Virus record (IMG/VR): IMGVR_UViG_3300003629_000002
DNA from: an uncultured virus (IMG/VR IMGVR_UViG_3300003629_000002)
Taxonomy: Duplodnaviria > Heunggongvirae > Uroviricota > Caudoviricetes
DNA: 64,000 nucleotides
Direction: 5' to 3' (one strand)
Shown: in pieces, positions 17,412-46,074 of the stretch
Numbering within the stretch: the first letter of the stretch is position 1
How the letters are laid out: every line of letters begins with the position of its first letter
Program-made: the position numbers and the translations under genes
Notes under the pieces: model-generated
What the model was told of the DNA's origin: nothing
Databases searched by the model: none
What the model saw: the letters and a program-made list of their open reading frames with translations, nothing else

Positions 17412-17416
17412 GTAAT

Positions 17417-18157
17417 ATGAAAGATAACAATATTTTCGGAGATACGTCCGAACGAGTTGTACGAAATAGTGGCCTATATCCTTTTAGATATTATCAGGCT
17501 TATAAGGCTATTAAAGAATCACCTGATACACCAAATGATAAGAGGGTATTAGAATGGCTCGAAAACGCAATGCGCGTTGCAACAGAGAATCTGCCGGACG
17601 TATTCGAGAATACGTTTACAGCAGTTGACGTGTCTGGTTCGATGCGTCACGCTGTCTCCGGTGATTCGGAACTCACTTGCAAGGAGATTGCCACGCTGTT
17701 CGGTGCGATGATGCTTGAGCGCGACTCGGATGTAGGCGTGTTTGCAAGCAACTTCGCTGAGGTAAACGCTGACCCGCGCAATCCACTTGTCACCAATGCG
17801 GAGAAGTTACAAGGTTCGCGTGTCGGCGGCTCGACGAATGGCTGGAAGGTGCTTCGTGGGCTGAGAAAAGAGAACCGCTCTTACGACAGGGTGGTAGTCT
17901 TCACGGATATGCAACTCTGGAACGACTCTCCGTACCAGAACTCCTCGTTCAAGGACGAGTGGGATGCCTACAAGCAACAGAATCCTGATGCAAGCCTATA
18001 TCTGATTGACCTTCAGCATTATGGCGACCTCGTTACGCCAGAGGGGGCGCAGGATGTATATAATATCTCCGGCTGGTCTGAGAAGGTTCTCGACTTCATC
18101 GAGGCCATTGAGAATGTCGATGGGATGATTCAAGAGATTGAATCGGTAGAGCCGTAA
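17417..18157 (+). CDS. Ro60/TROVE protein C-terminal part with vWA domain
   Basis: SGLYPFRYYQAY, AVDVSGSM (MIDAS), GGSTNG, VVVFTDMQ, ISGWSEKV. Confidence 0.9.
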   Translation: MKDNNIFGDTSERVVRNSGLYPFRYYQAYKAIKESPDTPNDKRVLEWLENAMRVATENLPDVFENTFTAVDVSGSMRHAVSGDSELTCKEIATLFGAMMLERDSDVGVFASNFAEVNADPRNPLVTNAEKLQGSRVGGSTNGWKVLRGLRKENRSYDRVVVFTDMQLWNDSPYQNSSFKDEWDAYKQQNPDASLYLIDLQHYGDLVTPEGAQDVYNISGWSEKVLDFIEAIENVDGMIQEIESVEP

Positions 18158-30000: not shown

Positions 30001-30483
30001 TGACCGAATGTACGCTCCCTTTGGCCGAAGATGACTGAAACTGTAGCCAACTCCGCCGCCACTCTTGAAAATCTGACCAGCGTGCTTCACCGTATCGAGA
30101 ATGGACTCTCGACCAAACTCGTCTTCCTCTGCCATCGAATCGCCCGGCTCAAGGACGAAGCAGGCCGAGAGTTGCTGAAGGCTCGCTCCTGCGTTCATTA
30201 GAGTCGGGCTGTTCGGCATAAACTGAAGCGTACTCATCATATGCTCGAACTCGTCGGCCCACATCTCCTGAGCCACTTCATCGCTTTCCGCACCAGCGAC
30301 GTTCTCTGCGACTCGATTGAATAGGTCTTCCGGGTCCTCACCTTCGAGGAGATACCGTGCTGGAAGAATATTGTGATATGCGTTTCCAGTCATTCGTTCC
30401 TTGACCGATTCAGTCTCGTCTACCGAGAGAATCGGCATCTCTACTTCTACTTCTTTCTCTGATGCTTGTGTTTGTTGAGTCAT
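27052..30483 (-). CDS. nrdJ: Adenosylcobalamin-dependent (class II) ribonucleotide reductase with intein
   Basis: PNSPTLMNAG, LSACFV, GGGVG, QGGKRRGA, NP/CAEQ, CNLG, TIAPTGT, ISKTIN, KGLTFYRDGSR. Confidence 0.95.
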   Translation of the reverse strand: MTQQTQASEKEVEVEMPILSVDETESVKERMTGNAYHNILPARYLLEGEDPEDLFNRVAENVAGAESDEVAQEMWADEFEHMMSTLQFMPNSPTLMNAGASLQQLSACFVLEPGDSMAEEDEFGRESILDTVKHAGQIFKSGGGVGYSFSHLRPKGAYIRSTESETSGPMQFMRLYDETCETVKQGGKRRGAQMGIMRIDHADIGRFITAKRVEGVLDNFNISVALTDEFIEAVRNDEDYAIYDPQSDFSEPQAVLEETKKFYSPEYADNPKDFQQANAEDKVGMELVDENLWRDYADTIVAHPDYDTDEKIPLAEKWDQSRFSLEVGEEMTLPARFIWDLIIDGAWRNGEPGLFHYDETNRKHSFDADEYPQHAINATNPCVTGDTLVNTPNGLIRAENVSEGNKISTVYGTESVDEILTFEDKEVYQVNLSDGGSVKATEDHRFHVLDGKKSVDKNTPLRDISEGDKIRLEPSTLESKGTEEDYKYQLRRGILTGDGGYTQKTIDVNNRLSISSSEDDTTFNQNVRELFEDAGYNVGELDTSGRNKSVKLWIADAEKVIEDHNLNPEYSYEKSVDVTEFKTRAGVQGFLDGMLATDGSVSMSSNRPQIRWSTSSEKLANNIRNLALNVGMHARIYEDKRKNRGGTRGDGSEIGNDETYTLYNIHIAGESADTFVRNTRLSNYHTSKGERLETLRTDFMLTGGLWKATVESIEVLEEKETVFDLYCSGSDTWVTEGYVNRGCAEQPLSAFEACNLGHVNLSLMMKSDSIPFEEWKKTVDYDYQFEKNAVTDYCEENVDWEQLQMITRHGTRFLDNVVTQSEFPLEQISERVKGQRKIGLGIMGWAQMLYQMGIPYGSDNSYQAARVVMGFIDKESVQMSHELAQERGSFDYWDESKYADPQKYREWFEGHTYESADDWEDGFPIRNHNTTTIAPTGTTSMIGNTTGGCEPAYNVANFKNVGDDIQGSDMLVEFDDYFLKTLEANGLDVESIKEDAETKMRNNEFDGVDDLDIPENIAKVFVTTNDLSSREHGMMQRAFQEFVDSGISKTINAPNDATRNDVHEAFMLALDEDELGQTIKGLTFYRDGSRDEQVLTTRVDNNLDKKQEAAREILIEMDDDAEWTEEDIEQFLEDAENYVESEL
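28258..29340 (-). mobile_element. 361-aa intein with LAGLIDADG endonuclease and atypical C-terminus (…YVNRG/C)
   Basis: Starts CVTGDT after ATNP; block B ATEDHRF; GILTGDG and FLDGMLATDG; VFDL; extein resumes CAEQPL. Confidence 0.9.
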
Positions 30484-30587
30484 TGTTATGTCACCGTCAA
30501 ATGCGAGAGCCATCCCTATGTGAATTACGATTCTCGCATCCAACTTCGGGATATTAGTGTATGCGTTCCGGGTACTTAAGCCTTTCG

Positions 30588-31943: not shown

Positions 31944-32016
31944 GGGCGATTGGCCGAATGGATAAGGCGCTGGTTTGCGGAACCAGAGATTGCGGGTTCG
32001 ATTCCTGCATTGCCCA
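31944..32016 (+). tRNA. tRNA-Arg(GCG)
   Basis: Cloverleaf, anticodon arm CTGGT-TTGCGGA-ACCAG. Confidence 0.9.
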
Positions 32017-32722
32017 CTCCTCCTCTCTTTGGTTGAGGGGATAACGCCGCCGAGTGGCGTGAATGCAAGTTCTCGGTAAATTGCGCGTCCATTTGCAAGA
32101 ATGGGCGGAAAGTAAGTTAAGGCTCGGTTTACATCGAGAGATGGTGTAGTCTTCGCTAACCACGAGGGCGGTATTAGCCAAGTACCGTATCGCAGACGGC
32201 TGGTGTCTGGCACAAAGACTTGGGACCTACAATGATACAGAAGGGAGATAAATCAGAAATGGCTGTCGCAAATGCGTTTACCCAATTTGGGACCGCAGTT
32301 TCGAAGCCGCTATCTGACAACCTCCCGTATGACTTCATTGTAGATTATAATGGCCTTCACAGAGTTCAGGTCAAAACTGCGCGGGAGCGTAGTGATAATA
32401 AGAACTCTATTATCGCAGACCTCACACGAAGCAGGCATAACTACTCTACTGGTCACAGTAAAGAGTATTATAGTGATGATGAGATTGACTTCTTCGCTAT
32501 TTATTGGCCGAAACGTGGGGAGGTATACTTGTTCGACTTTGACGAAGTTGGCAAGAACGCTGTAACTATTTGCGTAGGCGATGTTTATAACCCCAACCAG
32601 CAACGTGTTGGCGAGGATTATCTCCTTGAAGTACGGTTGGATTCATTAACACAGTCGTAAAAGGTCCGTCCCAACACTACGGGCGTAGTTTGACAGACTA
32701 CTGGTGGGCTGGTCTTCCACAC
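32017..32722 (+). ncRNA. Unknown multi-hairpin RNA (about 250 nt without insert) interrupted by an endonuclease-bearing putative intron
   Basis: Consecutive hairpins flank the ORF; pairing across it (GGACCT/AGGTCC, TGGTG/CACTA). Confidence 0.55.
32232..32660 (+). mobile_element. PD-(D/E)XK endonuclease (I-Ssp6803I / PDDEXK_5-like)
   Basis: KGDKSE, P....PYDFIVD, RVQVKT, Y...EIDFFAIY. Confidence 0.9.
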
Positions 32723-32781
32723 ATTCGTTTTCTAAATCGAAAGGTTTAAATAGTAGGGGCGCATTAGTAAGAGTACGAAGT

Positions 32782-32852
32782 GCCGAAGTGGTCTAAAAGT
32801 AAGATGCGTGCCTGTCACGCACGAGACTCGGGAGCATTACCCGGCTTCGGCG
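32782..32852 (+). tRNA. tRNA-Asp(GTC), atypical T loop
   Basis: CGTGC-CTGTCAC-GCACG; T loop AGCATTA. Confidence 0.8.
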
Positions 32853-32991
32853 TGGGCAATCTGACTTGCCCTTGACTGACGTGAGCCACACGGCAGGATT
32901 GACCAACCCTCGTTATAGGGAATCGTGGTGCATCGTCAGCGTACTGTGACGCCTCACGGTACGGGGGAGTATTCCCCTTTAATGACAGCGT

Positions 32992-33067
32992 GCTGGAGGA
33001 GCGCCCGATGGCGAGGTGTGCTTGGTTTTCACCCAAGAGGTCGTGGGTTCGATTCCCATCTCCAGTA
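32992..33067 (+). tRNA. tRNA-Glu(TTC)
   Basis: CTTGG-TTTTCAC-CCAAG; G at position 8. Confidence 0.85.
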
Positions 33068-33069
33068 TA

Positions 33070-33468
33070 ATGACGACAGAAACTAATAGAAAGGGTGACG
33101 TAGGAGAACTTCAAGTCGCTTCTACATTACTTGAGTTAGGTTACGTCGCATCCCGTCCAATGACGGAAACTGACTATGACCTAATTGTGGACCTCGGTGA
33201 TGACGGCATCAAACGGGTTCAAGTAAAAGTCTGTCGTTGGTCAGAAGATGACAACACGTATCGTGTAGGATTTGAGAAAACACACTACACATCAGACGGA
33301 GCCAACCGAAAACTATATCAAGATACAGATATAGACGCATACGCGGTATACAACCCTGATAGAAGTGAGGTATACTGGCTATGGTTTGGCGAAGCACCTA
33401 AATGGGGTGCTTCAAGAAGTGCTGATACGTGGCAAAAGGACTTGATTACAGAGAAGTTGGGTCGATAG
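33070..33468 (+). mobile_element. Free-standing PD-(D/E)XK endonuclease between tRNA genes
   Basis: KGDVGE, YDLIVD, RVQVK, Y...DIDAYAVY; stop codon lies inside tRNA-Phe. Confidence 0.9.
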
Positions 33469-33532
33469 GATAACTTGGGAATCCACCTGTTTGAAGAACA
33501 GGCGCATCTCGGTTCAAATCCGGGTCGGCCCA
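33459..33532 (+). tRNA. tRNA-Phe(GAA)
   Basis: CCTGT-TTGAAGA-ACAGG. Confidence 0.85.
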
Positions 33533-33535
33533 TAG

Positions 33536-33611
33536 GCTGATGGAGTTTCCGCTGGCGAGAAACGCTCGCTTCTCAGGCGAGAGGTCGTGGGTTCGATTCC
33601 TACCATCAGCA
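33536..33611 (+). tRNA. tRNA-Glu(CTC)
   Basis: CTCGC-TTCTCAG-GCGAG; G at position 8. Confidence 0.85.
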
Positions 33612-33615
33612 TACT

Positions 33616-33687
33616 GGCTTGGTAGTGTAACTGGGAACACACGGGTCTGAAAAGCCTGAGTACGCAGTTCAAGTCTGCGCCAAGCCA
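33616..33687 (+). tRNA. tRNA-Phe(GAA), second copy
   Basis: CGGGT-CTGAAAA-GCCTG. Confidence 0.8.
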
Positions 33688-33893
33688 TAGATGGCAAAAT
33701 TTCCCGAGGAAATGTCGTTTGTCCTCGTTGAAGACGCATTTCAGCATTACGACATTGCGCTGTTCGAACTTGTCGAAACAGTATATGTCTACTGCGAATG
33801 GTGCGATGCTGTAATCGCAACCTTTACATACGAGGAGGTTGTTGGTATGAATCGGGATGAACTATACGTAGCCATCATCGAGAAACACAGCGT

Positions 33894-33967
33894 GTCCGAG
33901 TTGGTCTAATGGCTCAAGACACTACCTTGTGGCGGTAGAGATGTGGGTTCGATACCCTCACCCGGAC
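33894..33967 (+). tRNA. tRNA-His(GTG)
   Basis: CTACC-TTGTGGC-GGTAG; G-1:C73; single mismatches in acceptor and T stems. Confidence 0.8.
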
Positions 33968-34083
33968 CTTATGGGCTTGTGTTGCAATATGCACCGAAGA
34001 ACAACTCCGTCAGGTGTATGTGGCACTATGAATGAGTGTATGGTTTTTGGAGTTTCCCATACACGACTAACAGGCTCGACAGC

Positions 34084-34154
34084 GCGTGGTTGGTCCAATG
34101 GAAAGACCCGTCCCTGCCACGGACGAGACTCGGGTTCGATTCCCGAACCGCGCA
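34084..34154 (+). tRNA. tRNA-Gly(GCC)
   Basis: CGTCC-CTGCCAC-GGACG. Confidence 0.9.
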
Positions 34155-34244
34155 TTGCGGGATGATGAACACCTCGACGAAATCGAGGATGGTGCAGGCT
34201 GTGCAGAGATTTGGGAACACCTTTCAGAAAAACGAGAGGAGTAA
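34155..34244 (+). CDS. 29-aa haloarchaeal-type microprotein (HLDEIEDGAGCAEIWEHLSE)
   Basis: TTG start directly after tRNA-Gly; motif resembles a small haloarchaeal protein family (from memory). Confidence 0.55.
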   Translation: MRDDEHLDEIEDGAGCAEIWEHLSEKREE

Positions 34245-34258
34245 GGTTCCTCCAAAGC

Positions 34259-34329
34259 GCGTGAGTGAGGTAGTGGTATCCCACGAGATTTCCAATCTCG
34301 TGACAGGGGTTCGATTCCCCTCTCGCGCA
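34259..34329 (+). tRNA. tRNA-Gly(TCC)
   Basis: CGAGA-TTTCCAA-TCTCG. Confidence 0.9.
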
Positions 34330-34340
34330 TATATTTAGAT

Positions 34341-35144
34341 ATGGCACGCCTGAAATCATTCCCGTACTTTGGCGGGAAATATACACACGCTTCTTCGATA
34401 GAGAAACTTCTTCCGTATGATGAAAAATATGTAGAGCCGTTTGGCGGTTCTGCTGATGTGCTACTGCAACGAGAACCGTCGCCGGTAGAGACGTACAACG
34501 ATTTGGACGAGGACGTTGTAACATTCTTCAAAGTGCTACGCTCGTGCCCGAACGAGTTAATACGGCAATTAAAATTGACGCCATATTCTCGGACAGAGTT
34601 CGAGCGTGCTATTTCTGAACCGACTCCCGCCTCGGAGATAGAGCAAGCGCGACAATTCTTTATTTCAATTACGCAGTCGTATAATGCGAAGTCGTCAGAG
34701 AAGTCGTCCGGCGATTGGTCGTATGCGATTTCGACAACTGCACGCGGGCGCTCAAGCGAGATTTCTTCATTGCAGGGATACGAGATTGTATTGTCAGATG
34801 TTGCCGAACGCTTTAAGAGGGTTCAGATAGAATGCCGTGACGCGATTGACGTGATAGAGACACACGATTCGAGCGATACAGTTATCTATTGCGACCCGCC
34901 GTATCCAGCAGGAACGAGGCGTAGTGGCTCGTACAAGCACGAGTACGACGAGTCAGACCACATTGAACTGCTGGAAGTATTGAACAATTGCGATGGGCAG
35001 GTTGCAATCTCCTCCTATGCGAGCGACCTCTACAACGATGCACTTGATTCGTGGAACGTGTATACACTCCGTGCAAAGCCACTCCCGTCATCCGAGAAGC
35101 AGACATTGGACGAGGAAGTCGTGTATACAAATTATAACACGTAG
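34341..35144 (+). CDS. DNA adenine methyltransferase (Dam/D12 class)
   Basis: FPYFGGK, YVEPFGGS, YNDLD, YCDPPY. Confidence 0.93.
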   Translation: MARLKSFPYFGGKYTHASSIEKLLPYDEKYVEPFGGSADVLLQREPSPVETYNDLDEDVVTFFKVLRSCPNELIRQLKLTPYSRTEFERAISEPTPASEIEQARQFFISITQSYNAKSSEKSSGDWSYAISTTARGRSSEISSLQGYEIVLSDVAERFKRVQIECRDAIDVIETHDSSDTVIYCDPPYPAGTRRSGSYKHEYDESDHIELLEVLNNCDGQVAISSYASDLYNDALDSWNVYTLRAKPLPSSEKQTLDEEVVYTNYNT

Positions 35145-35253
35145 AAATCGAAAGATTTAAGTAGGGGGAGTTCCTATAGGTAATACGGTCGAAGAAGACC
35201 AAAGTATTCCGCCGTGCGCGATTTCAAAAAGGGGATTCTTTTCCCTTTATCGT

Positions 35254-35737
35254 GTCGTGGTAGTTCAATTAGTAGAACGCCGTGCTGTTAAGGACATATG
35301 AACACAAAAGACAAAGGTGATTTGGCTGAAGTATCCGTTGTAAAACGGGTAAAGGAGTTAGGTTATACGGTATCAATTCCATTCGGTGATAATGCACCAT
35401 ATGACCTGATATACGATGATGGCCAATTACACAAAGTCCAAGTGAAATATGGTAGACTATCTGAAGGAAAAGTTAAAGCAAAACTTGAGCGGACACAAAG
35501 AAATCAAGGAAGACACGCTCATAAACCGTATGATTCGTCTGAAGTTGACGAATTTGCAATTTATTGTCCGGGGACAGATGAAGTTTACCGTATATCAGTA
35601 ACAGATGGCCAAAGACGGAAGTCTATCTTCGTGTTGAGGAAGCGAAGAAGGCTGATTCAAGTATACGTTGGGCATCTGAATATCGTTTATAGTCCGCAGA
35701 TACACGGAGGTTGGAGGTGCAAGTCCTTCCCGCGACG
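35254..35737 (+). tRNA. tRNA-Asn(GTT) with a 411-nt BHB intron (35291-35701) at position 37/38
   Basis: Exons 35254-35290 and 35702-35737 join into a cloverleaf; strict BHB motif. Confidence 0.92.
35298..35692 (+). pseudogene. Intron-encoded PD-(D/E)XK endonuclease with an apparent -1 frameshift near 35608
   Basis: KGDLAE, PFGDNAPYDLI, KVQVK, VDEFAIYCP; the -1 frame continues PKTEVYLRVEEAKKADSSIRWASEYRL* and stops at the intron stem. Confidence 0.85.
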
Positions 35738-35800
35738 TTCTTTTGCACAATTTTCTTTATCGAAAGATTTATATAGTATAAACACATACACTAATATACG

Positions 35801-35875
35801 CTCAGGATAGCGCAATTTGGTTGACGCACTCGCCTGTAGAGCGAGGCTATGCAAGTTCAAATCTTGCTCCTGAGA
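35801..35875 (+). tRNA. tRNA-Tyr(GTA)
   Basis: CTCGC-CTGTAGA-GCGAG; archaeal C1:G72. Confidence 0.9.
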
Positions 35876-35975
35876 TATTCGCTCGGGACAGGCGCGAGAT
35901 TAAATAATTGCCCCAAAGCAGTTACCCTTACGAGAGTTCAACCCTTCCTGTAGGAAGTTCCGTTGCTCTCCCAAT

Positions 35976-36051
35976 GGGCTGATGGCGAAACTTGGCTTAA
36001 CGCACCGCGCTCTTGACGCGACATATACGGGTTCAAATCCTGTTCAGCCCA
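35976..36051 (+). tRNA. tRNA-Lys(CTT), G37
   Basis: CCGCG-CTCTTGA-CGCGA. Confidence 0.75.
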
Positions 36052-36053
36052 CT

Positions 36054-36140
36054 ACCGAGATTGAGGAGGCTGGCTATCCTCGGTAGGCTCATGACCTACT
36101 TGTGCCACGCACTAAGAGGGTTCGAATCCCTCTCTCGGAA
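36054..36140 (+). tRNA. tRNA with CAT anticodon and long variable arm (identity uncertain)
   Basis: GTAGG-CTCATGA-CCTAC, variable stem GTGC/GCAC, A1:A72 mismatch. Confidence 0.7.
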
Positions 36141-36180
36141 TTTTCGAAAGACTTAAGTTGCTTGAGTGACTACTCTCTAT

Positions 36181-37041
36181 ATGGGATTCTTTGAAGCACT
36201 CGCTCGATTTTTCCGAAGACTATTCGGCAATTCAGGGCAAGATTCGACAGAGGAACAGGACTCCACAGAGGAGCAAGATTCTGAGGATGAGCAAAATTCT
36301 ACTGAGGATGAGCAAGATTCGACAGAGGAACAGGACTCCACAGAGGAGCAAGATTCTGAGGATGAGCAAGAATTGCCTGATGAGCCGCAGGAAGCGGCCT
36401 CGACCGAGTACGATGATAGGACAATTCAGATTACTATTCATCAGACCAAGAAACTAACCGAAAGAAATGGCCGCGTTCCTGAACGTATGGCTGTTCGATA
36501 CTTGGAGAATGCGTTGAGCGCGGCGGCGAAGAATTATCGCATTCGATATAACTTTAAGGCATTCGACGCGAGTACGGAGAAGGCGGTCTGTGCAGATGAT
36601 TCCGTGTATCAGGAGTGGCGAACTGCCATCAATGATAACAATGTTGAGAATGCAACAGACTCGAATATTCTGCTTACTGATGCACGCGGTGGCGGCTGTG
36701 GTTCAATTGGTGGACGAGTTGCGTCAGCGCCGGGACATTATATAGAGCAGATGCGCGAATATTCCGAGACAGAGACAGGAGACGATGCGTCAAATCTTCA
36801 CGCCATTCTCCACGAGTTTACACACAATATGGGAATTGGGCACGACTCCGACAAGCAACAGGAAGGTCAGCAACACGGCGGGATGGGTTGGAACGAGAAT
36901 GGCTACTGGCATCGCACGCCAAACGTTGCCGGAAATGGAGCGCCGAATCGCTGTGGAGAGGATGTCGAAGAACGAGAACACGATTCCGTGATGCATCATC
37001 AATACTTCTGGCATTGCACAATCGACAACTTTAACAAATGA
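36181..37041 (+). CDS. Zincin-like metallopeptidase with N-terminal amphipathic helix and acidic repeats
   Basis: HEFTHNMGIGH (HExxHxxGxxH). Confidence 0.75.
   Translation: MGFFEALARFFRRLFGNSGQDSTEEQDSTEEQDSEDEQNSTEDEQDSTEEQDSTEEQDSEDEQELPDEPQEAASTEYDDRTIQITIHQTKKLTERNGRVPERMAVRYLENALSAAAKNYRIRYNFKAFDASTEKAVCADDSVYQEWRTAINDNNVENATDSNILLTDARGGGCGSIGGRVASAPGHYIEQMREYSETETGDDASNLHAILHEFTHNMGIGHDSDKQQEGQQHGGMGWNENGYWHRTPNVAGNGAPNRCGEDVEEREHDSVMHHQYFWHCTIDNFNK
36238..36369 (+). repeat. Two identical 57-nt direct repeats (75-nt period) encoding QDSTEE-type units
   Basis: 36238-36294 equals 36313-36369. Confidence 0.9.
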
Positions 37042-37391
37042 ATCACGACTGGACCTACATCGCAGAACTTGAGAATATCGTAGATGGAGACACGTTAGAC
37101 TTCACGGTAGACCTCGGCTTCGGTACATACAAGAAAATCCGTGTTCGGCTATACGGCGTTGATACGAATGAAACATATGGAGTAAAGAAGGAATCAGAAG
37201 AATATGCTCTTGGCAAAGCACAAGCAAAATTTGTGCAAGAATGGTTCGAAAGTCGAGATAATATCACGATAGAAACAATCAAAGACTCTAAAGGAAAATA
37301 CGGTCGGTATCTCGCACGAGTCCACGGCGATGGTGATAATTTACGTGACGACCTGATTGAAGAATGGCCGCACGTTGAAGCATCGTACTAA
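37038..37391 (+). CDS. Thermonuclease (SNase-like) family protein
   Basis: IVDGDT..VDLGF, RVRLYGVDT.E, GKYGRYLA. Confidence 0.9.
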   Translation: MNHDWTYIAELENIVDGDTLDFTVDLGFGTYKKIRVRLYGVDTNETYGVKKESEEYALGKAQAKFVQEWFESRDNITIETIKDSKGKYGRYLARVHGDGDNLRDDLIEEWPHVEASY

Positions 37392-37440
37392 ATCGAAACC
37401 TTTAAGTAGTAGCAGTTCATAGATACGTATACGCGAATTT

Positions 37441-37513
37441 GGGCCGCTGGTCTAACTGGTAAGACACTTGCTTTGCAAGCAAGTAACTCCCGATTCGAGT
37501 TCGGGGCGGTCCA
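37441..37513 (+). tRNA. tRNA-Ala(TGC)
   Basis: CTTGC-TTTGCAA-GCAAG; G3:U70. Confidence 0.92.
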
Positions 37514-37624
37514 CTAAGGAAGATGAAGTCCAAAACTACAACAACAGGCACGCGCCGTTAAGTAGTTACAACTTCATCGTTCCCGCATTCCTCGATGCTC
37601 ATTCAAAAATGTGGAGATAATACT

Positions 37625-37729
37625 ATGTCAAATGAAACAGCCTGTATCAATGAATTTGCGCTTGACGAAGATGATGTATGCGTTGCGTGCGGTCGTACAA
37701 TCGAGGAAATAATTAACGCAGGCTCGTAG
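37625..37729 (+). CDS. 34-aa DUF1289-like microprotein
   Basis: CINEFALDEDDVCVACGRTIEEI. Confidence 0.55.
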   Translation: MSNETACINEFALDEDDVCVACGRTIEEIINAGS

Positions 37730-37730
37730 T

Positions 37731-37806
37731 TCCGGCTTGGCCGCAATGGTGTGGCGCTCGCCTTGTAAGCGAGAGATTCAGCAGGGTTCGATTCCCTGAG
37801 CCGGAT
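37731..37806 (+). tRNA. tRNA-Thr(TGT)
   Basis: CTCGC-CTTGTAA-GCGAG. Confidence 0.88.
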
Positions 37807-37808
37807 TA

Positions 37809-37879
37809 TCCGCGTTGGTCCAACAGCAAGACACTTCCCTCGTAAGGAAGCAATCCGTGTGCAAATCGCGGGCGTGGAT
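37809..37879 (+). tRNA. tRNA-Thr(CGT)
   Basis: CTTCC-CTCGTAA-GGAAG. Confidence 0.85.
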
Positions 37880-37882
37880 TTA

Positions 37883-37953
37883 TCCAGTATGGTCTAATGG
37901 AAGGGCACGGCTTTGGTATGGCTGATGTGAGGGTTCGACTCCCTCTGCTGGAT
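37883..37953 (+). tRNA. tRNA-Thr(GGT)
   Basis: CGGCT-TTGGTAT-GGCTG. Confidence 0.85.
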
Positions 37954-38077
37954 TATGTGGATGCTCGAAACAGAATCACGAATCTGCACAATCTGTGATA
38001 ACGAGTTTTACAATCTTGATGCAGGCTTCGATATTAGGTTGGTCTGCTACGATTGCTATCCACTTGGTGAACTCTGA

Positions 38078-38152
38078 AGGCCGATAGCCAAACTCGCGTA
38101 AGGCACGGGACTTTTAATCCCGCGATTGTGGGTTCGAATCCCACTCGGCCTA
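38078..38152 (+). tRNA. tRNA-Lys(TTT)
   Basis: CGGGA-CTTTTAA-TCCCG. Confidence 0.9.
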
Positions 38153-38758
38153 TCGAAACTTTTAAGGCTACTCGATTCGTAATAGTTGTATGTACGACTT
38201 TACAGAACCGGACCCGAAATTTGGTGATAGAGGATACGTTGTACGATACAACGATGCGACGAAAGGATATGTCTTGAATGAGGAAACTCGTAATGAGCGT
38301 GTCTTTGTCTGGCGACAGGACCCGTTCTATCTCTTTAATGGATTCTCAATGTCGGAGACTCTGAAAGAGAAGATTAGTGATACTGAAAAGATTTATGTCC
38401 TCTCCGCTGAAGAAGATGAAATGTTTCGATTTGACACAGAATCTCTTGACGGCGCACTCGTTGTTGAACCTACGGACGATGCATTCAATAATTACAAGCC
38501 GCAGGAGACGCAGTACGTCCTCAAATTTGACAACGCTGAAGCGACCTTCGACTTACCGGATGATATAGAGTGGCTGTAAATCGAAAGATTTAAATAGTAG
38601 GACCCCGTACAAGATAATAGAGAAAATGATTCCACGATGCTCATCTCAGAGTCAGCAAATTTCGTGGAGTCAAATCTCCATATTTTAGACTCGGGGTGCT
38701 TGGAGAGGTACTACCGGGTCGCAAGACTTAAATACAAGTAGTCCTAAGACTACAATGC

Positions 38759-38832
38759 ACTCCCGTATGGTAGCGGCCAATCCTACCGGGCTTTGGACCC
38801 GGTGACGTTCGGTTCGAATCCGACCGGGAGTA
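38759..38832 (+). tRNA. tRNA-Gln(TTG)
   Basis: CCGGG-CTTTGGA-CCCGG; A1:U72. Confidence 0.9.
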
Positions 38833-38836
38833 TAGA

Positions 38837-38921
38837 GCCGTTGGGTGAGCGATTTGGTGCGCTCAGTCGATTCGAAATCGACCTCCGTAAAGGAATGCAG
38901 GTTCAAATCCTGTCCACGGCG
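38837..38921 (+). tRNA. tRNA-Ser(CGA)
   Basis: GTCGA-TTCGAAA-TCGAC, long variable arm, G73. Confidence 0.85.
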
Positions 38922-38935
38922 TAACAGGAATTAGG

Positions 38936-39006
38936 GAGGTCTTGGTGGAATAGCAACATACTCGCCTCCAGAGCGAGTGATGGGAGTGCAAATCTCTCAG
39001 ACCTCA
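38936..39006 (+). tRNA. tRNA-Trp(CCA)
   Basis: CTCGC-CTCCAGA-GCGAG; no intron. Confidence 0.85.
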
Positions 39007-39011
39007 TTTGG

Positions 39012-39097
39012 GCCGTGGTTGGGTCAGGCAAACCTATCTTGATTGCTAATCAAGAGGTCGCGGAAGCGGCCAGAAGGTTCGAATCCTTCCCTCGGCG
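39012..39097 (+). tRNA. tRNA-Ser(GCT)
   Basis: TTTGA-TTGCTAA-TCAAG, long variable arm. Confidence 0.85.
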
Positions 39098-39101
39098 TTG
39101 A

Positions 39102-39235
39102 GCGTCCGTGGCCCAATCAGGTACGGCACTCCGCTGATAAAAGAGATAATCAGATGAATATCCCAATATTAATTCGGCATCTGAGTATCACTTGCAGTAA
39201 CGGAGCGATTGTTGGTTCAAATCCAACCGGGCGCA
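39102..39235 (+). tRNA. tRNA-Ile(GAT) with a 60-nt intron (39140-39199) at position 37/38
   Basis: CTCCG-CTGATA|...|A-CGGAG; BHB with one A.G mismatch. Confidence 0.88.
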
Positions 39236-39622
39236 TATGAAGCAATGTTCACGGTGTGACGACGAGAAAGCAATCTTGAATGAGCGTGAAGTCTGTCTCG
39301 ACTGCGCTGATGAGTTCTTTGGATAGATGACGCTTGGAACCTCGGCGGAACTTGATGAACGAGTTGAGAAAGCCGAGGAGTACGGCTACAAGCGAGACTA
39401 CTTTCCCCTTCGATGGAATGGGCATCATATTGTCCTGCTCCACAACGACGCACACAAGACGGATGATGGAAGGGTGTATTTTAGATTAAATCTTACGTGC
39501 CTAAATTGTCACGAGGAACACGGCATTCGCGGAACAATATTTCCGGTTGACGGAATCTACGTGCAAACCATAAAACTTATCCCGTTGGGAAACTACTTCC
39601 TTAATGGGTGCAACTAAGCGTA

Positions 39623-39695
39623 GTCGAGGTGGCAGAGTTTGGTTACGCGGGGGCCTGCAAAGCCTCACACGAGGGTTCGAATCCCTCCCTCGACT
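39623..39695 (+). tRNA. tRNA-Cys(GCA)
   Basis: GGGGC-CTGCAAA-GCCTC; U73. Confidence 0.88.
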
Positions 39696-39701
39696 TTGAG
39701 T

Positions 39702-39785
39702 GCCATCTTAGACATTGGTATGTCAGCGTGTCTTGAAAACACGTAATCCCTTACGGGAATCTCGGTTCGAGTCCGAGAGATGGCG
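39702..39785 (+). tRNA. tRNA-Ser(TGA)
   Basis: CGTGT-CTTGAAA-ACACG, long variable arm. Confidence 0.85.
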
Positions 39786-40429
39786 TAACACTTTTATACT
39801 TGCAGTTCGTACCTTGCATATGGATAGTGACGAGATTACCGAATTTGTGCAAGATATTGGCGCGGAGTATGACGTGTTGCATTTGCAGACACAGCAATTT
39901 AGAGATGAAGCGAGGCAAGCGGATGTTGTGCAAGTTTATAAGCGAATGAACAACGAAAAGATTGGCGGAGAGGTGGCGCTCACTCACGAGATGATGAGCA
40001 ACGGATATACTGACCTGATGGCTCGTCAGATTGAAGAAATGATACGCTCAATCAGAGAAACCGTAATCTCGAATATGGGCACAACATTTGAATATCACGG
40101 GAGAGATATTGCCTGCGGTGTTTCAGGAGAGGTCGCACGAGCGCGATGTGAACAATGCGGCTATGTGACAGAACTCGGTAAATTGCCGTATGTTGTTCAG
40201 GAAAGAACTGGAACGTTTCAGACGATTAATACCGTCGAGCGTTGGAGGAAGCAACGGCTGGCGATGTATATGTGCGAAATGATGGAACGAGAATGTCCCT
40301 GTGGGAAGCAACGGCGCGGGCAACACGACTATAATCGAAACCTTTAAGTACCCGGAGTTCCATAATTAAGTAAGGGGCGAAAGGAGTGATGTGGCGGTAT
40401 CAGGGGAATTTAATATCTATTCCCGTGTT

Positions 40430-40502
40430 GCCCGTATGGTCCAATGGAATACGACACTTGGCTTCGGACCAAGAGATAGGGGTTCGACTCCTCTTACGGG
40501 CG
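40430..40502 (+). tRNA. tRNA-Arg(TCG)
   Basis: CTTGG-CTTCGGA-CCAAG. Confidence 0.9.
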
Positions 40503-40773
40503 TTATGTTAGGCAAGCACCTAATCTGTGATAATTGCGGCGACATCACGTTAGACGCGACATTCGAGGAAGGAGCGTATGTTGACATTCACGGTAGTTAC
40601 GACTACTCCGAGGTTGTCTCCGAAGAAAAGCGTGTATCGAACAAGGTCAAGCACACGGATTGGGTAAGAGAAGCCTTCCCCGACCCCGACGACCCGATTG
40701 CCATCAATTTCGAGGAGTTTTGCCCCGATTGCCAATAGCAAGATTTAAGTAGACGGAGCGTCTATTCTCTTAT

Positions 40774-40846
40774 GGGCGTATGAGGTAGTGGACTATCCCA
40801 CGGGTCTTCTAAACCTGTGACGCGAGTTCGACTCTCGCTACGCCTG
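40774..40846 (+). tRNA. tRNA-Arg(TCT)
   Basis: CGGGT-CTTCTAA-ACCTG. Confidence 0.88.
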
Positions 40847-41336
40847 TCAAATGAAATATAGCATCGCACTTGGTGGACATAGCATCACCTTCGAGGACGG
40901 CACGTTCGAGTGTGCGGATTGCGAGATTACGGAGAGCATTCCGCATATCTTTTACAAGGATGGTGCAGAGAGTGTGCAGAAGTATAAGTATTATGCACTT
41001 GGATTGATTCATCGTCAGCCGTGCGGCGACCCAAATGAGATTGAAGAAATGTTGGACGACCTCGATGGAGGCGCGGCAAGCAGTATCGCAATTGGTGATA
41101 TGTCTGCCGGGAGTGCCCAAATTGATATGGTATCAAATGGTGTTGTAAACGTTGCTGGCGACCAAATTCACCTGAAAGATGGGATGCCTGCTACCTATGA
41201 GGACCAGCAGAAATTGCAGAAGCATATCGAGGTTGCTCGAAAGCAGGACGAGATTCGGAGCAGGATGGGATTGTAGTGCTGTGAAATTTGAAATCGAAAG
41301 TTTTAAATAGTAGGAGTTCCTATACACAGAGTACGC

Positions 41337-41419
41337 GAGTCGGTACGAGAAACGGTTAAACTCACGAGGCTTAGGACCTCGCGCTTAGTGCTTTGCAGGT
41401 TCGAATCCTGTCCGACTCA
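41337..41419 (+). tRNA. tRNA-Leu(TAG)
   Basis: CGAGG-CTTAGGA-CCTCG. Confidence 0.9.
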
Positions 41420-41422
41420 TTT

Positions 41423-41497
41423 CAGCCGAGAGAGTGAGATACTTCAATTCCACCACTATCTTGGGATACAGAATCCAACTCACTCTCAACTTTGCTG
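41423..41497 (+). ncRNA. Small stem-loop RNA with GCCGA...TACTTCAA motif (Y RNA-like)
   Basis: GAGAGTGAG/CTCACTCTC 9-bp stem, CAGC/GCTG ends; lies between two tRNAs. Confidence 0.5.
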
Positions 41498-41506
41498 AAA
41501 CTTCGC

Positions 41507-41590
41507 GCATCTGTAGGGAACTGGCGAAACCCATAGGCTTGAGGGGCCTTGCCCGTAGGGGCTTTCTTGGTTCGATTCCAAGCGGGTGCA
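41507..41590 (+). tRNA. tRNA-Leu(GAG)
   Basis: TAGGC-TTGAGGG-GCCTT. Confidence 0.85.
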
Positions 41591-41593
41591 TAT

Positions 41594-41677
41594 AGGTCGG
41601 TGCGCCGAGTCTGGTTAAGGCAGGAGGTTTAAGCCCTCCCGGTTAGTCCATCGTCGGTTCAAATCCGACCCGGCCTA
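41594..41677 (+). tRNA. tRNA-Leu(TAA)
   Basis: GGAGG-TTTAAGC-CCTCC. Confidence 0.85.
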
Positions 41678-41692
41678 TTGCTGATACTAAGC

Positions 41693-41773
41693 GAGTGAGT
41701 AGCCAATTGGAAACGGCAAGAGGGTCAAATCCTCCGGCAAGGTCCTGTGTAGGTTCGATTCCTACCTCGCTCA
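41693..41773 (+). tRNA. tRNA-Leu(CAA)
   Basis: AGAGG-GTCAAAT-CCTCC. Confidence 0.78.
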
Positions 41774-41825
41774 TGTAACTTTTCTTACGGAAAGATTTAA
41801 GTACGTGTAGTCCCAACAGTCTATT

Positions 41826-42383
41826 ATGGAAAACGAAAACTACTATCTGCAAGAGTTTGAGGAACTCTCCGAGAAAAACTCGTTCAAGGCGGAGCAATGG
41901 TTCGGGAAGCGCGGCGACTTGGTAGAGGAATATGGTTGGGCTATCCCGAATGAGGAAGCAATTGAACACATTGCTGACCTTAGCCCGATTGTCGAAATTG
42001 GTGCAGGGAAGGGCTACTGGGCGCGGCTTCTTCGAGAGGTCGGTGCAACCGTTATCGCATACGACATCGAGCCACCCGGCGAGGACGCTTGGACCTCCGT
42101 TGAGCAAGGCACTCCGAAGATGCTCGAACGCTTCAACGGAGAGTATACGCTTCTTCTATGCTGGCCGCCATACGGTGACGATATGGCGATTAATGCACTT
42201 GAGGCGCACATCGAGCAAGGCGGAACTGATGTTGTCTACGTCGGGGAACACTTCGGCGGCTGTACCGCGAATGAAGCCTTCCATAATGAGATAAAGAAGC
42301 GGTACGCGCTTGCGAACAAGATTACCATTCCGTCATACGAAGGTATTCACGATAACGTGTACCACTACAAGAGGAAACAATAA
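41826..42383 (+). CDS. SAM-dependent methyltransferase-like protein
   Basis: YGWAIP, VEIGAGKGYW, LLLCWPP, YVGE..GCT. Confidence 0.8.
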   Translation: MENENYYLQEFEELSEKNSFKAEQWFGKRGDLVEEYGWAIPNEEAIEHIADLSPIVEIGAGKGYWARLLREVGATVIAYDIEPPGEDAWTSVEQGTPKMLERFNGEYTLLLCWPPYGDDMAINALEAHIEQGGTDVVYVGEHFGGCTANEAFHNEIKKRYALANKITIPSYEGIHDNVYHYKRKQ

Positions 42384-42890
42384 TGGGTCTGAAATGGGAC
42401 GGCGACGACGAGACTGACTCTGGCGCAAATGAGGAAGCAATGCCGGGAGACGACGAACTGGTTGACGTAACCGAGAGTTCGACACAGGAAGGACCTGAAC
42501 GCCCTCCTGAGATGCAAGACGAAATTCCAGATAATCCAGACGACTGTCAGCATCCGTGGGACGGCGTGACTCAAGAGACGATGAAGCGTATCGTACAGGG
42601 AAGTGCAATTGACACAAAGGAGATTTACTGGTGCAACTCCTGCAAGACAATCCTCGATGTAATCGAATGAAGAAGAAATTTAAACAAATCGAGGTTTCGA
42701 CGGAGTTCCTTGTCGAAATGCTAAAGTCTGGCGGCAGGCGTAGCACAGACTTGCCACACGATGCCACGTTTGTCCGAATGTATCCCACGGATAGAGGCTC
42801 GACTTACTGGATTGTGCTTCACTCGGACGAGTGGCGTGAACTTGCAGAAGGCGAGAAAATCCCGCGAACGGAGGTAACGGTGACTGATAT

Positions 42891-43391
42891 ATGCAGGTAG
42901 CACTCGACTTAGAGGAAGTCCTCGCTGACACGATTAGCGAAGCGTGCCACTCTACCGACAATCTTGAGAGCGGCGATTTCAGCAGTTGGGACCTCGATGA
43001 TTATACGTGGCAAGTCTACTCTGGCGTGAGCGATGCCCTCTGGCGACACGACCCGTTGAGCATTCCGGCAGTCGAGCCGGGACTCGCTGAATATACCGAG
43101 TCTATTCACAGCAAGACGGATACGCTTGATATTGTGACAGCAAGGATGCACGTTGACGAGTCGGTCGAACTCTGGCTTGAGCATCACGGAATCTGCTACG
43201 ATTCAATTGTGTCAACTCGCACGCCGAAGCACGAGTTAGGTTACGACCTCTATGTAGACGATAATCCAGAAATGTTTGGAAATTGCCGCCTGCTCTTGAG
43301 GCATCATCCACATAATTCAGAATTGGACGACATTCGTAGCAAGTCGTGTGATAGGATTCATAGTCTTGCTGAAGCCGTTGACTTCATATGA
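42891..43391 (+). CDS. HAD-like 5'(3')-nucleotidase family protein
   Basis: VALDLEEVLAD, IVTAR, YVDDNP, HPHN. Confidence 0.75.
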   Translation: MQVALDLEEVLADTISEACHSTDNLESGDFSSWDLDDYTWQVYSGVSDALWRHDPLSIPAVEPGLAEYTESIHSKTDTLDIVTARMHVDESVELWLEHHGICYDSIVSTRTPKHELGYDLYVDDNPEMFGNCRLLLRHHPHNSELDDIRSKSCDRIHSLAEAVDFI

Positions 43392-43966
43392 GATTATTAT
43401 TTACGAAGCAACGAGTGCGACACGAGCGAGTCGTCTTTGCTGTGAGTTGTTCCAACTGCGACTATTATGTTGCGCTGGTCCTCGATGAAAAGGATGGCGT
43501 CTATCGAGGAACGCCAAATGAAGCCTTTCTCGAAGGGCTGATGCGAATGATGGCGATGGACAATTGTGATTGCACGAGTTCAGATAGATGGGAGCGTCCG
43601 TTCAGATGAAGGAACCAGACTGGTGCAATATGGGATACGGCGTCAACTGCTACGAGGCAAAATGTAAGTATTGCGAAGAAACTGCAAGGCTCGCGTTTGG
43701 CGATAACGAGAAAGAACTGCTCACGATAAAGTGTCAAGACGAACTGGGTAGAAAGCAGATGGAACTGTGCGAATTTGTGTTCCATTTTGTCCTCATTAAG
43801 TTGCGACGGGAGTGTAATTGTGATATAAATCGAAAGGTTTAAATAGGAGTAGTTCTTATAGGTATAATACGGAAGATGGCTGGTGGTCCAATGGGTTCAA
43901 CTCCCTTCCAGCCAACTACGATGAGAAGACCTGAGACGACACTCATCTAAACAAATGCCGCTCTGC

Positions 43967-44041
43967 GCGTGCATAGTTCAATCTGGTTAGAATAGGCCGC
44001 TTACATCGGCCCGGTTGGAGGTTCAAATCCTCCTGCACGCA
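43967..44041 (+). tRNA. tRNA-Val(TAC)
   Basis: GGCCG-CTTACAT-CGGCC. Confidence 0.9.
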
Positions 44042-44065
44042 CTCAATGTAAACCCATTGTTGCAA

Positions 44066-44191
44066 ATGGTAAGACAAACCATCCATTGTGGATGTGGTAA
44101 CGTGTTCAAACAAACGCAGTCTGTCGAGGTATGCGAGAAATGCGGCTCGCGGCATTACCGCCACGGCGTCTCGTATAACTTCGAAGAATAG
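44066..44191 (+). CDS. 41-aa zinc-ribbon microprotein
   Basis: HCGCG...CEKCGS. Confidence 0.55.
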   Translation: MVRQTIHCGCGNVFKQTQSVEVCEKCGSRHYRHGVSYNFEE

Positions 44192-44209
44192 CCTCGTCGG
44201 AGGCTTCGC

Positions 44210-44284
44210 GGGCGTGTGGTCCAACTCGGTTAAGATGCCGTCTTGACTTGGCGGAGATTTACGGTTCGAATCCGTTCACGCCCA
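44210..44284 (+). tRNA. tRNA-Val(GAC)
   Basis: CCGTC-TTGACTT-GGCGG; U37. Confidence 0.85.
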
Positions 44285-44596
44285 TTCGGAAGATTTAAAT
44301 ACTCGGAGTACCATATGCTATATATGGAAGAACGAGACGTTGAATCTGTCACTCCCATCGAAGAAACTGATTGGGAGAATGACTCGAAGTGTATGTCTGC
44401 CAATGTGGATATGTCTGCCGCGTGCGATAACAGCGCAGACAAAGAACTCGCAGTAGTCTATGAGAACGAGCCTGATAAGACGTTCTACACTATTCTCTGC
44501 GAGGAATGTGCGAGCGACTACTTGCGAAAGTGGGACATCGCGCAAATCTACGGAGACTCTGCAATCGAGGACGATAGCGATTATAAGATAAACTGA

Positions 44597-44682
44597 GCCG
44601 TTGGTTGAGCAACTTGGTTCGCTCACCTGTCTGGAACACAGGCTCCCTTCGGGGAATGCAGGTTCAAATCCTGCCCACGGCG
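44597..44682 (+). tRNA. tRNA-Ser(GGA)
   Basis: CCTGT-CTGGAAC-ACAGG, long variable arm. Confidence 0.85.
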
Positions 44683-45621: not shown

Positions 45622-46074
45622 ATGAGTGATTTCAAGTTTTCGAGCCGTCGCTCTCCCGTGATTATGGTCTGCGGCGCGACCACCTACGAGGACCCATTCT
45701 CGTGGCAGGATGACGTTGCATCTGAGTATCCTGACTACGAGTTCGTCAATCCGTATGAAATCGGAGGCGATGTCGCTGACCCCTACGATAACCCCGAGCA
45801 AATTATGGAACCTGTCGTCGCAAAAATCGAGCAAGACGTTGACGGTCTGCTTGTCTCGTGGCAGGACGATGCTTTTCTTGCAGGGGCAGTCGTCTATATG
45901 CGAGAGGCGCATCGGAAAGGCATTCCAATTGTTCTCTGGTATCAGGGCGACCGTGACAAGATGCAGATTCCCCTCTCGTGGATGATGCGCTCCTATCACG
46001 AGGACCGAGCAACTGCAATCAAAGTATTGCTCTCGCTTCTTGGAGATAATGAAGTCTTGGTTGATTCTCCATGA
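45622..46074 (+). CDS. Nucleoside 2-deoxyribosyltransferase-like fold protein
   Basis: MVCGA....W, FVNP, DGLLV, G...A...GIPIV; usual catalytic Glu not evident. Confidence 0.5.
   Translation: MSDFKFSSRRSPVIMVCGATTYEDPFSWQDDVASEYPDYEFVNPYEIGGDVADPYDNPEQIMEPVVAKIEQDVDGLLVSWQDDAFLAGAVVYMREAHRKGIPIVLWYQGDRDKMQIPLSWMMRSYHEDRATAIKVLLSLLGDNEVLVDSP

Follow-up and report, generated by a model that had tools for sequence, protein, structure and literature searches.

A 60-nt intron in a haloarchaeal virus tRNA-Ile gene as a probable relic of a homing-endonuclease intron

Introduction

Archaeal 16S rRNA introns of the Thermoproteales are described in several states, with the same sites holding a form that bears an open reading frame (ORF), a remnant without an ORF, or a hairpin of less than 50 nt, and the accepted account of the remnants is that the nuclease gene decays after fixation (PMC4496867). 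A 64-kb stretch of viral DNA (IMG/VR record IMGVR_UViG_3300003629_000002; hereafter the window) carries, within an array of tRNA genes, a tRNA-Ile(GAU) gene with a 60-nt intron that may have arisen in a comparable way. The 3′ part of this intron resembles the end of a nuclease gene borne by the 411-nt intron of a tRNA-Asn(GUU) gene in the same array, and the best reading of the sequences is that the tRNA-Ile intron is probably the relic of an ORF-bearing intron from which the ORF was deleted.

Like the Thermoproteales 16S rRNA introns (PMC4496867), the introns considered here would be protein-spliced, of the bulge-helix-bulge (BHB) type, and they occur in long and short forms. The rRNA case, as described in that source, involves LAGLIDADG nucleases, cellular genomes and a single site, whereas here the host gene is a viral tRNA gene, the nuclease is of the PD-(D/E)XK type, and the long and short forms are found in different tRNA genes. 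A second close system is I-Ssp6803I of Synechocystis, whose gene lies within the tRNA-fMet group I intron (PMC1995217); its family, PF11645, appears in a published table under ‘ssp6803i’ as a homing endonuclease, with 2ost as structure (PMC3424549). The nuclease of the tRNA-Asn intron belongs to the same protein family (PF11645; PDB 2OST) and is likewise encoded in an anticodon-loop tRNA intron. The cyanobacterial intron belongs to group I, is 655 nt long and splices itself, whereas the tRNA-Asn intron has a BHB motif and its nuclease is frameshifted.

Transposition of tRNA introns has been described in the Thermoproteales, where similar introns across isoacceptors were read as DNA-level gain (Fujishima et al., 2010, as reported in PMC4090602). 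This 2014 review calls the mechanism of transposition unknown (PMC4090602), and a 2026 preprint on Asgard tRNA introns states that their arrival route ‘remains open’ (bioRxiv 10.64898/2026.10.13.758758). The window differs from the Thermoproteales case in that a candidate nuclease is physically present in one of the introns. Free-standing homing-endonuclease genes in phage tRNA regions offer a further parallel, as two nuclease genes of the PDDEXK_5 family lie between tRNA genes in the window; unlike the tRNA-Asn intron nuclease, such genes sit outside introns. Judged by position alone, the free-standing nucleases would target tRNA genes. In the literature searched, no report was found of nuclease-intron decay into short forms for tRNA introns, nor, with the original genome paper and supplements of Halogranum tailed virus 1 (HGTV-1) outside the search, of a PD-(D/E)XK nuclease borne by a tRNA intron of the protein-spliced kind or by an intron of an archaeal virus.

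The tRNA-Ile(GAU) Gene and Its 60-nt Intron

A first-pass annotation, made from the window's sequence, had claimed a 60-nt intron in tRNA-Ile; ARAGORN and the Rfam tRNA model both call the gene and its intron, which ARAGORN places at 39140-39199. The gene comprises the following features:

39102-39235, + strand: intron-bearing tRNA-Ile(GAU) gene, with exons 39102-39139 and 39200-39235 (ARAGORN with introns allowed; Rfam RF00005)
39140-39199, + strand: 60-nt intron at canonical position 37/38 (ARAGORN, fold)
39141-39156, + strand: 5′ strand of the intron hairpin (AAG-a-GATA-a-TCAGATG), including the ATG at 39154-39156 (minimum free energy, MFE, fold)
39178-39197, + strand: 3′ strand of the hairpin (CATCTGA-g-TATC-a-CTT), then G39194 facing A35 and CAG pairing with C32-U33-G34 (fold)
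39159-39200, + strand: frame YPNINSASEYHLQ-stop with the core INSASEYHL at 39168-39194, the proposed relic of the last PDDEXK_5 codons (translation)

The intron is inserted after nucleotide 37, and the joined exons form a 74-nt tRNA-Ile(GAU) cloverleaf (ARAGORN) that aligns to the intron-less gene of HGTV-1. RF00005 scores 47.6 bits across all 134 nt of the interrupted gene, covering model positions 1-71. The frame at the 3′ end of the intron reads INSASEYHLQ-stop, its TAA (39198-39200) being composed of the last two intron bases and the exon base A38.

In the MFE fold the intron forms an interrupted 14-bp hairpin with a 21-nt loop, in which AAG-a-GAUA-a-UCAGAUG pairs with CAUCUGA-g-UAUC-a-CUU above a BHB-like base. 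A BHB-like form, with C32-G, U33-A and G34-C pairs and bulges at both junctions, is predicted at -18.9 kcal/mol, compared with -20.3 kcal/mol for the MFE. In this form the flanking helices are present (the anticodon stem, and AAG/CUU with GAUA/UAUC) and the 3′ bulge, UAA, is regular, while the central helix consists of 3 bp and an A35.G39194 mismatch. On the best reading, the insert at position 37/38 would be a protein-spliced intron of the BHB type. Since the central helix contains this mismatch and the splicing enzyme of Haloferax volcanii is described as strictly requiring the helix-bulge-helix-bulge-helix (hBHBh′) motif (PMC7714728), splicing of the tRNA-Ile intron is plausible on the predicted fold, and its efficiency is not assured.

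The tRNA-Asn(GUU) Intron and Its Nuclease

The tRNA-Asn intron is the only other intron of the array to which the tRNA-Ile intron can be compared, and two further copies of its nuclease family stand free between tRNA genes:

35253-35738, + strand: tRNA-Asn(GUU) gene with a 411-nt intron at 35291-35701, after nucleotide 37 (ARAGORN)
35298-35612, + strand: PDDEXK_5 nuclease of the intron, its N-terminal two thirds, beginning with the ATG at 35298 (Pfam PF11645, E 1.1e-31, profile positions 1-104 of 138; family hidden Markov model, HMM, positions 2-114)
35609-35692, + strand: C-terminal part of the same nuclease in a different frame, PKTEVYLRVEEAKKADSSIRWASEYRL-stop (family HMM positions 104-134, E 1.6e-4)
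32232-32660, + strand: free-standing PDDEXK_5 gene between tRNA-Arg and tRNA-Asp (Pfam PF11645, E 6.1e-22)
33070-33468, + strand: free-standing PDDEXK_5 gene between tRNA-Glu and tRNA-Phe (Pfam PF11645, E 2.4e-21)

The hBHBh′ motif of tRNA-Asn is regular, with a CUGU/GCAG central helix (one G.U pair), bulges UAA and AUA, and an outer helix GGAC/GUCC. At 411 nt, most of it ORF, and with a BHB motif, this intron must, to judge from its sequence, depend on the splicing enzyme of the host. The family HMM, which was built from sequences outside the window, and Pfam together cover the nuclease in two frames, as one base is missing around 35607-35611 and no single intact frame spans the domain. The C-terminal part, PKTEVYLRVEEAKKADSSIRWASEYRL-stop, aligns with the C-terminal ends of P0002 and P0003, the nearest homologs of the nuclease in the database (65% and 64% identical), and ends in ...ADSSIRWASEYRL* with a TAG at 35690-35692. 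This C-terminus, which the first-pass annotation had quoted, is indeed present, but its frame differs from that of the ATG at 35298, and the frameshift had gone unnoticed.

The catalytic columns D37, Q49, K51 and D85 are nearly invariant in the family and are all present in the tRNA-Asn nuclease. A near-identical public contig, from run X1, has 455 letters on 454 window positions (35394-35847), with one extra letter within that stretch. The 170-residue read-through product of the frameshifted nuclease is found in the database as P0001, from two contigs. With three further family copies in the array, decay of the nuclease appears to be seen in progress, since the intron-borne copy in tRNA-Asn is already frameshifted.

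In the MFE fold of the tRNA-Asn intron, UAUGAAC at the start codon is paired with GUUUAUA at the stop codon, beside GGAC/GUCC. With this pairing next to the splice-site helix, a deletion of the interior would leave a hairpin made of the two ends of the ORF, and the tRNA-Ile intron has this appearance.

Resemblance of the tRNA-Ile Intron to the Nuclease C-Terminus

A profile of 16 members of the nuclease family matches PDB 2OST at E 1.4e-19. The C-terminal motif I-[RN]-[WLFY]-A-x-[DE]-[YF]-x-[LIVF] is conserved family-wide, in phages, bacteria and archaea, and close homologs end in IRWASDYLIDSE, IRWAKEYKL, INWAEEYIVE, INWAEDYILQ (P0005) and INWIDDYIMV. Because it is found throughout the family, the motif dates back to the ORF rather than to the intron, and the DNA of the tRNA-Asn intron at this point is explained by its coding.

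The earlier claim that the frame at 39159-39200 resembles this C-terminus is supported at the level of both protein and DNA. Positions 21-59 of the tRNA-Ile intron align without gaps to positions 365-403 of the tRNA-Asn intron, with 27 of 39 letters identical and a score of 15. The 14-mer GGCATCTGAATATC at 35671-35684 in tRNA-Asn corresponds to GGCATCTGAGTATC at 39176-39189 in tRNA-Ile, and the tRNA-Ile frame equals P0005 in its length to the stop. Dinucleotide shuffles reach the score of 15 in 8 of 5000 cases when the tRNA-Ile intron is compared with the whole tRNA-Asn intron, and in 1 of 5000 when the comparison is confined to the 3′ 40 nt of the former and the final 60 nt of the latter.

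For the peptide, a motif matrix of nine columns aligned to IRWAKEYKL was made from 46 distinct motifs of 51 distinct homologs (viral loci and database proteins), with the window excluded. INSASEYHL fits this matrix with 9.98 bits; 37 of 20000 shuffles of the intron do as well, and so do 23 of the 12456 overlapping 60-nt tiles into which the window was cut outside nuclease genes. Among 3112 peptides made of the last 16 residues before stops, the tRNA-Ile peptide ranks third with the C-terminal region of the family HMM, behind the true tRNA-Asn C-terminus and a second peptide that is a chance match; with the whole-family HMM it scores only 0.6 bits, which is weak in absolute terms. The comparison with shuffled controls and with PDDEXK_5 C-termini, both suggested in the first-pass annotation, thus gives a similarity better than chance, and the tRNA-Ile intron appears to keep residual PDDEXK_5 similarity in the expected frame and position. 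The chance level is about 2e-4 to 2e-3 for the pre-specified comparison and is weaker once selection by eye is allowed for. Descent from coding sequence would be the simplest account of the stretch.

Of the six conserved residues, three depart from the tRNA-Asn copy at the third codon base only (ATA/ATT, GAA/GAG, TTA/TTG). These are not counted as evidence, because differences over the whole alignment are spread as 4, 4 and 5 over codon positions 1, 2 and 3.

The same annotation had pointed to the strand GCAG of the central helix in both introns. Both do end in GCAG plus two bases, facing CTGT (tRNA-Asn) or CTGA (tRNA-Ile) at positions 32-35, but as evidence this is weak, with one informative base. 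As a sign of tRNA-Asn origin it was discarded, since three of the four bases (CAG) are forced by C32-U33-G34, which both tRNAs have in common.

Could the Resemblance Be Due to Chance?

The foremost alternative is that the tRNA-Ile intron has an unrelated origin as an ordinary short hairpin intron, in which a 9-residue motif and a 14-mer match arose by luck in AT-rich sequence. This is rather unlikely, though it has to be taken seriously, as a number of observations weigh against descent from a nuclease gene. At least six distinct sites in the window, among the matches listed, fit the motif by chance at or above the tRNA-Ile score, one of which, IRWASSFVL at 62411-62500, reaches 15.7 bits antisense to a 449-residue baseplate-region gene. 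A third copy of the 14-mer, with one mismatch, is found at 45717-45730, where it codes ASEY inside an unrelated ORF, and when both strands are scanned, another unrelated site in the window aligns to the tRNA-Ile intron with a score of 16, above the 15 of tRNA-Asn. The evidence base is about 40 nt, and the case was picked by eye from the whole window, so that nominal p-values overstate it. The family's most conserved residue, a tryptophan, is replaced by serine in the tRNA-Ile frame. The similar stretch doubles as the 3′ strand of the hairpin, and structural selection will have shaped it. The spread of differences over codon positions shows no clear third-position excess, and the central helix bears the mismatch noted above.

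The 5′ ends of the two introns add to these points, as they have no significant similarity (their score is reached by 3248 of 5000 shuffles). A 5′ homology of CAGATGAA with CATATGAA, in which ATG-AAY would be a relic of the start codon, was rejected as not significant on the same shuffles; the ATG can be explained by its pairing with CAT in the 3′ strand.

Against chance stands the fact that the comparison was fixed beforehand, there being only one other array intron and the same end and the same frame to compare, and it is this comparison that 1 of 5000 shuffles equals. The matrix free of the window gives the figure of 37 in 20000 independently of the tRNA-Asn copy. Moreover, the match occurs at the expected position and in the expected frame, immediately before a stop at the 3′ end of the intron.

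Relatives and the Search for a Long Allele

If the tRNA-Ile intron once held an ORF, a long form might be found in related viruses, as the first-pass annotation had proposed. None was found: no ORF-bearing tRNA-Ile intron was seen in the viral, metagenome and genome scans, in five related records, or in the contigs of four runs, and this also speaks against an origin by ORF deletion. Comparative sampling is very thin, with HGTV-1 as the only relative that has an orthologous tRNA-Ile. The tRNA-Asn nuclease, used as a single-protein query on viral contigs, gave no long tRNA-Ile intron and no close relative. A neighbour-gene query on viral contigs returned HGTV-1 and an identical fragment of the virus itself, and nothing else. 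The metagenome scan gave one locus, without tRNA-Ile, and a T-arm pattern scan gave seven loci, with tRNA-Ile(GAU) only in the same virus and HGTV-1. A thymidylate-kinase scan added four relatives, one with an intron-less tRNA-Asn, none of which extends to the position of tRNA-Ile. PF11645 in the five related records found one copy, which is free-standing. When contigs of four public runs were placed on the window, no long tRNA-Ile form appeared; one contig of run X2 joins 39137 to 39198, and hence the exons directly, with short sides of 34 letters that may belong to the tRNA-Ile of another organism. The proposed origin by ORF deletion therefore has a real resemblance at the same end of both introns on its side, but no long allele in relatives.

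In HGTV-1, the tRNA-Ile ortholog (L001:8188-8262) has no intron and lies directly upstream of the same small gene as in the window (72% protein identity). The tRNA-Asn ortholog (L001:5850-5922) is also intron-less, and both hold the same array positions as the window genes. In another relative (L126), tRNA-Asn (7689-7761) is intron-less and the contig stops before the position of tRNA-Ile. Conversely, tRNA-Ala(UGC) of HGTV-1 (L001:6945-7048) carries a 31-nt intron whose BHB motif is regular (UUUG/CAAA), whereas the tRNA-Ala of the window (37441-37514) has none. Intron content thus varies between close viruses, and because the HGTV-1 orthologs of both interrupted genes lack introns, the window introns would be lineage-specific gains, or the HGTV-1 states losses.

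A likeness of the HGTV-1 tRNA-Ala intron to the tRNA-Ile intron, CGGCTTCTG versus CGGCATCTG (8 of 9), was set aside as not significant, about 0.13 such matches being expected by chance. A nuclease-like gene ends 18 nt upstream of the same HGTV-1 tRNA-Ala(UGC).

Other Routes to the Same Sequence

A different possibility is that the tRNA-Ile intron never had an ORF and gained the 3′ piece of an ORF-bearing intron by recombination or gene conversion within the array. The similarity does not extend beyond the 3′ 40 nt, the nuclease family has several copies within 7 kb, and the HGTV-1 array differs from that of the window in gene order and intron content, all of which would suit such copying. Identity to the sole intron-borne copy present is about 70%, too low for recent conversion, and this route is improbable; even if taken, the stretch would still be a relic of a nuclease ORF, so that it departs from origin by deletion in route only.

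A recent jump from tRNA-Asn to tRNA-Ile within this genome is likewise argued against, since the 3′ ends are about 70% identical and the tRNA-Ile peptide is equally close to other family members (P0005, INWAEDYILQ). Movement between tRNA genes, as put forward in the first-pass annotation, may have taken place. Likeness of target sites was considered and rejected as support: over 28 nt round the insertion, tRNA-Ile and three more of the 33 other tRNAs compared each match tRNA-Asn at 15 of 28 positions. The core GCTGnTA|AC is the only part unique to the tRNA-Ile and tRNA-Asn pair, and is weak.

An RNA element shared by the two introns was also considered. Box C/D guide RNAs have C (RUGAUGA) and D (CUGA) boxes, D′ and C′ boxes and a guide complementary to the target, and a box C/D element occurs in the tRNA-Trp intron of Haloferax. 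That the shared CUGA-containing stretch is such a box C/D-like or other RNA element, for which the tRNA-Ile intron offers GAUGA (39153-39157) and CUGA (39181-39184) flanked by GAUA/UAUC, is highly improbable, since the C-like box is CAGAUGA rather than RUGAUGA, the CUGA is single, D′ and C′ boxes are absent, UCAGAUG/CAUCUGA is a perfect 7-bp Watson-Crick helix in the MFE and not a kink-turn, only tRNA among the Rfam families reaches E below 0.1 on 39090-39250 (no small RNA family matching), and the tRNA-Asn intron has UAUGAAC at the corresponding place and codes WASEY in the shared stretch, so that no RNA motif is needed; box C/D in particular was rejected on the plain helix and the lack of an Rfam match, no search having been made for a guide target.

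The Nuclease Family and tRNA Genes Beyond the Window

Members of the PDDEXK_5 family keep company with tRNA genes elsewhere. Of the 50 viral loci where the family is represented, one or more tRNAs are called in 48 when introns are allowed and in 44 at standard settings. A tRNA gene is found within about 150 nt of a PDDEXK_5 gene in 43 of the 50 viral loci and in 55 of 60 genome loci. In the latter set (L061-L120), family members from cellular genomes stand next to tRNA-Arg(UCU) in 54 of 60, in Nostoc and other cyanobacteria, Mycobacterium, Ilumatobacteraceae, Armatimonadota and others. By this proximity, the family appears tied to tRNA genes far beyond the virus of the window, mostly as free-standing genes.

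In the Halorubrum virus HSTV-4, a PD-(D/E)XK nuclease gene (L121:1390-1926) begins 3 nt past tRNA-Asn(GUU), the isoacceptor whose intron holds the nuclease in the window. ARAGORN also reports anticodon-loop interruptions of 429-636 nt with a PDDEXK_5 ORF in viral contigs (L004, L013, L030, L035, L042 and L045-L047), some of which may be false; an example is a tRNA-Met with 429 nt on a contig of 31.5% GC. A check for group I introns at five viral loci with PDDEXK_5-interrupted tRNA calls gave no Rfam match at gathering score.

The Viral Genome

The dense array of tRNA genes spans 31944-44682 of the window, in which ARAGORN counts 32 tRNAs with introns disallowed and 35 with introns allowed. It is syntenic with the tRNA array of HGTV-1 (Halomagnusviridae), at about 79% identity over 26% of a 4.1-kb query, and genes for ribonucleotide reductase, dCTP deaminase and thymidylate kinase flank both arrays. 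On this synteny, the array is that of an HGTV-1-like haloarchaeal virus. The identical IMG/VR contig fragment matches the window across the tRNA-Ile region. A 291-residue ORF within the array (36166-37041) has a long N-terminal acidic repeat of STEEQD units and no Pfam match at E 1e-5.

The virus encodes its own tRNA-splicing ligase:

8389-9777, + strand: RtcB tRNA-splicing ligase (Pfam PF01139, E 9.9e-63)

An RtcB gene is also found in HGTV-1, for which published accounts mention one intron-bearing tRNA and ligases that possibly serve intron removal (PMC13532342, PMC8651126). The window also codes for two LAGLIDADG nucleases, one HNH nuclease and an intein-bearing ribonucleotide reductase, and because it encodes these together with RtcB, its genome is taken to be one rich in selfish elements with a tRNA ligase of its own. 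The LAGLIDADG genes are free-standing, at 3722-4453 and 11028-11735, and the intein in the ribonucleotide reductase (27055-30513, - strand) bears a LAGLIDADG domain as well. The HNH homing-endonuclease gene (16707-17408) is flanked by two ORFs, one coding for a TROVE domain (15889-16707) and the other for a Ro60 vWA domain (17417-18154), and looks to split a Ro60-like gene at 15889-18154.

Downstream of RtcB, at 10448-10579, another tRNA-like gene is interrupted, here by an insert of some 57 nt (Rfam tRNA, 42.7 bits). ARAGORN calls it Ile(GAU), the anticodon stem is weak, and the MFE gives a 9-nt loop. HGTV-1 has a counterpart at the same place, annotated as ‘tRNA Asp (gtc) + Intron’.

Proposed History and Significance

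Under the reading of the tRNA-Ile intron as a relic left by ORF deletion, an ORF-bearing intron like the present one of tRNA-Asn would have entered the anticodon loop of tRNA-Ile, the nuclease cutting the intron-less gene and repair copying the intron-bearing version. After fixation the nuclease gene would have decayed and its interior been deleted, while both ends of the intron were retained, as the helix on which the two splice sites are presented is built from them. For this reason the far 3′ end of the ORF would survive as a fossil. The 3′ two thirds of the insert would go back to a PD-(D/E)XK homing-endonuclease gene of the I-Ssp6803I/PDDEXK_5 family, namely to its stop and the roughly 13 codons before it. 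At present, the transcript would fold as the 14-bp interrupted hairpin with splice sites at its base, the host splicing endonuclease would cut there, and RtcB, of which the virus has its own, would join the exons.

A broader proposal is that PD-(D/E)XK homing endonucleases drive mobile protein-spliced tRNA introns in haloarchaeal tailed viruses, targeting anticodon loops, and that the array displays the whole life cycle in its free-standing genes, the frameshifted ORF intron of tRNA-Asn and the 60-nt stump of tRNA-Ile. This is put forward tentatively, and on balance may well not hold. The suggestion, already made in the first-pass annotation, that such loss of an ORF is a general route to small archaeal tRNA introns would extend the same line of thought.

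Gain of archaeal tRNA introns is an unsettled matter, to which this locus brings the long and short states side by side in a single genome, while HGTV-1 offers natural targets that lack the introns. The presence of both states and of these targets makes the idea testable at the bench with few constructs. If it is true, nuclease-driven homing followed by loss of the ORF would be a concrete, testable route for the origin and spread of short archaeal tRNA introns.

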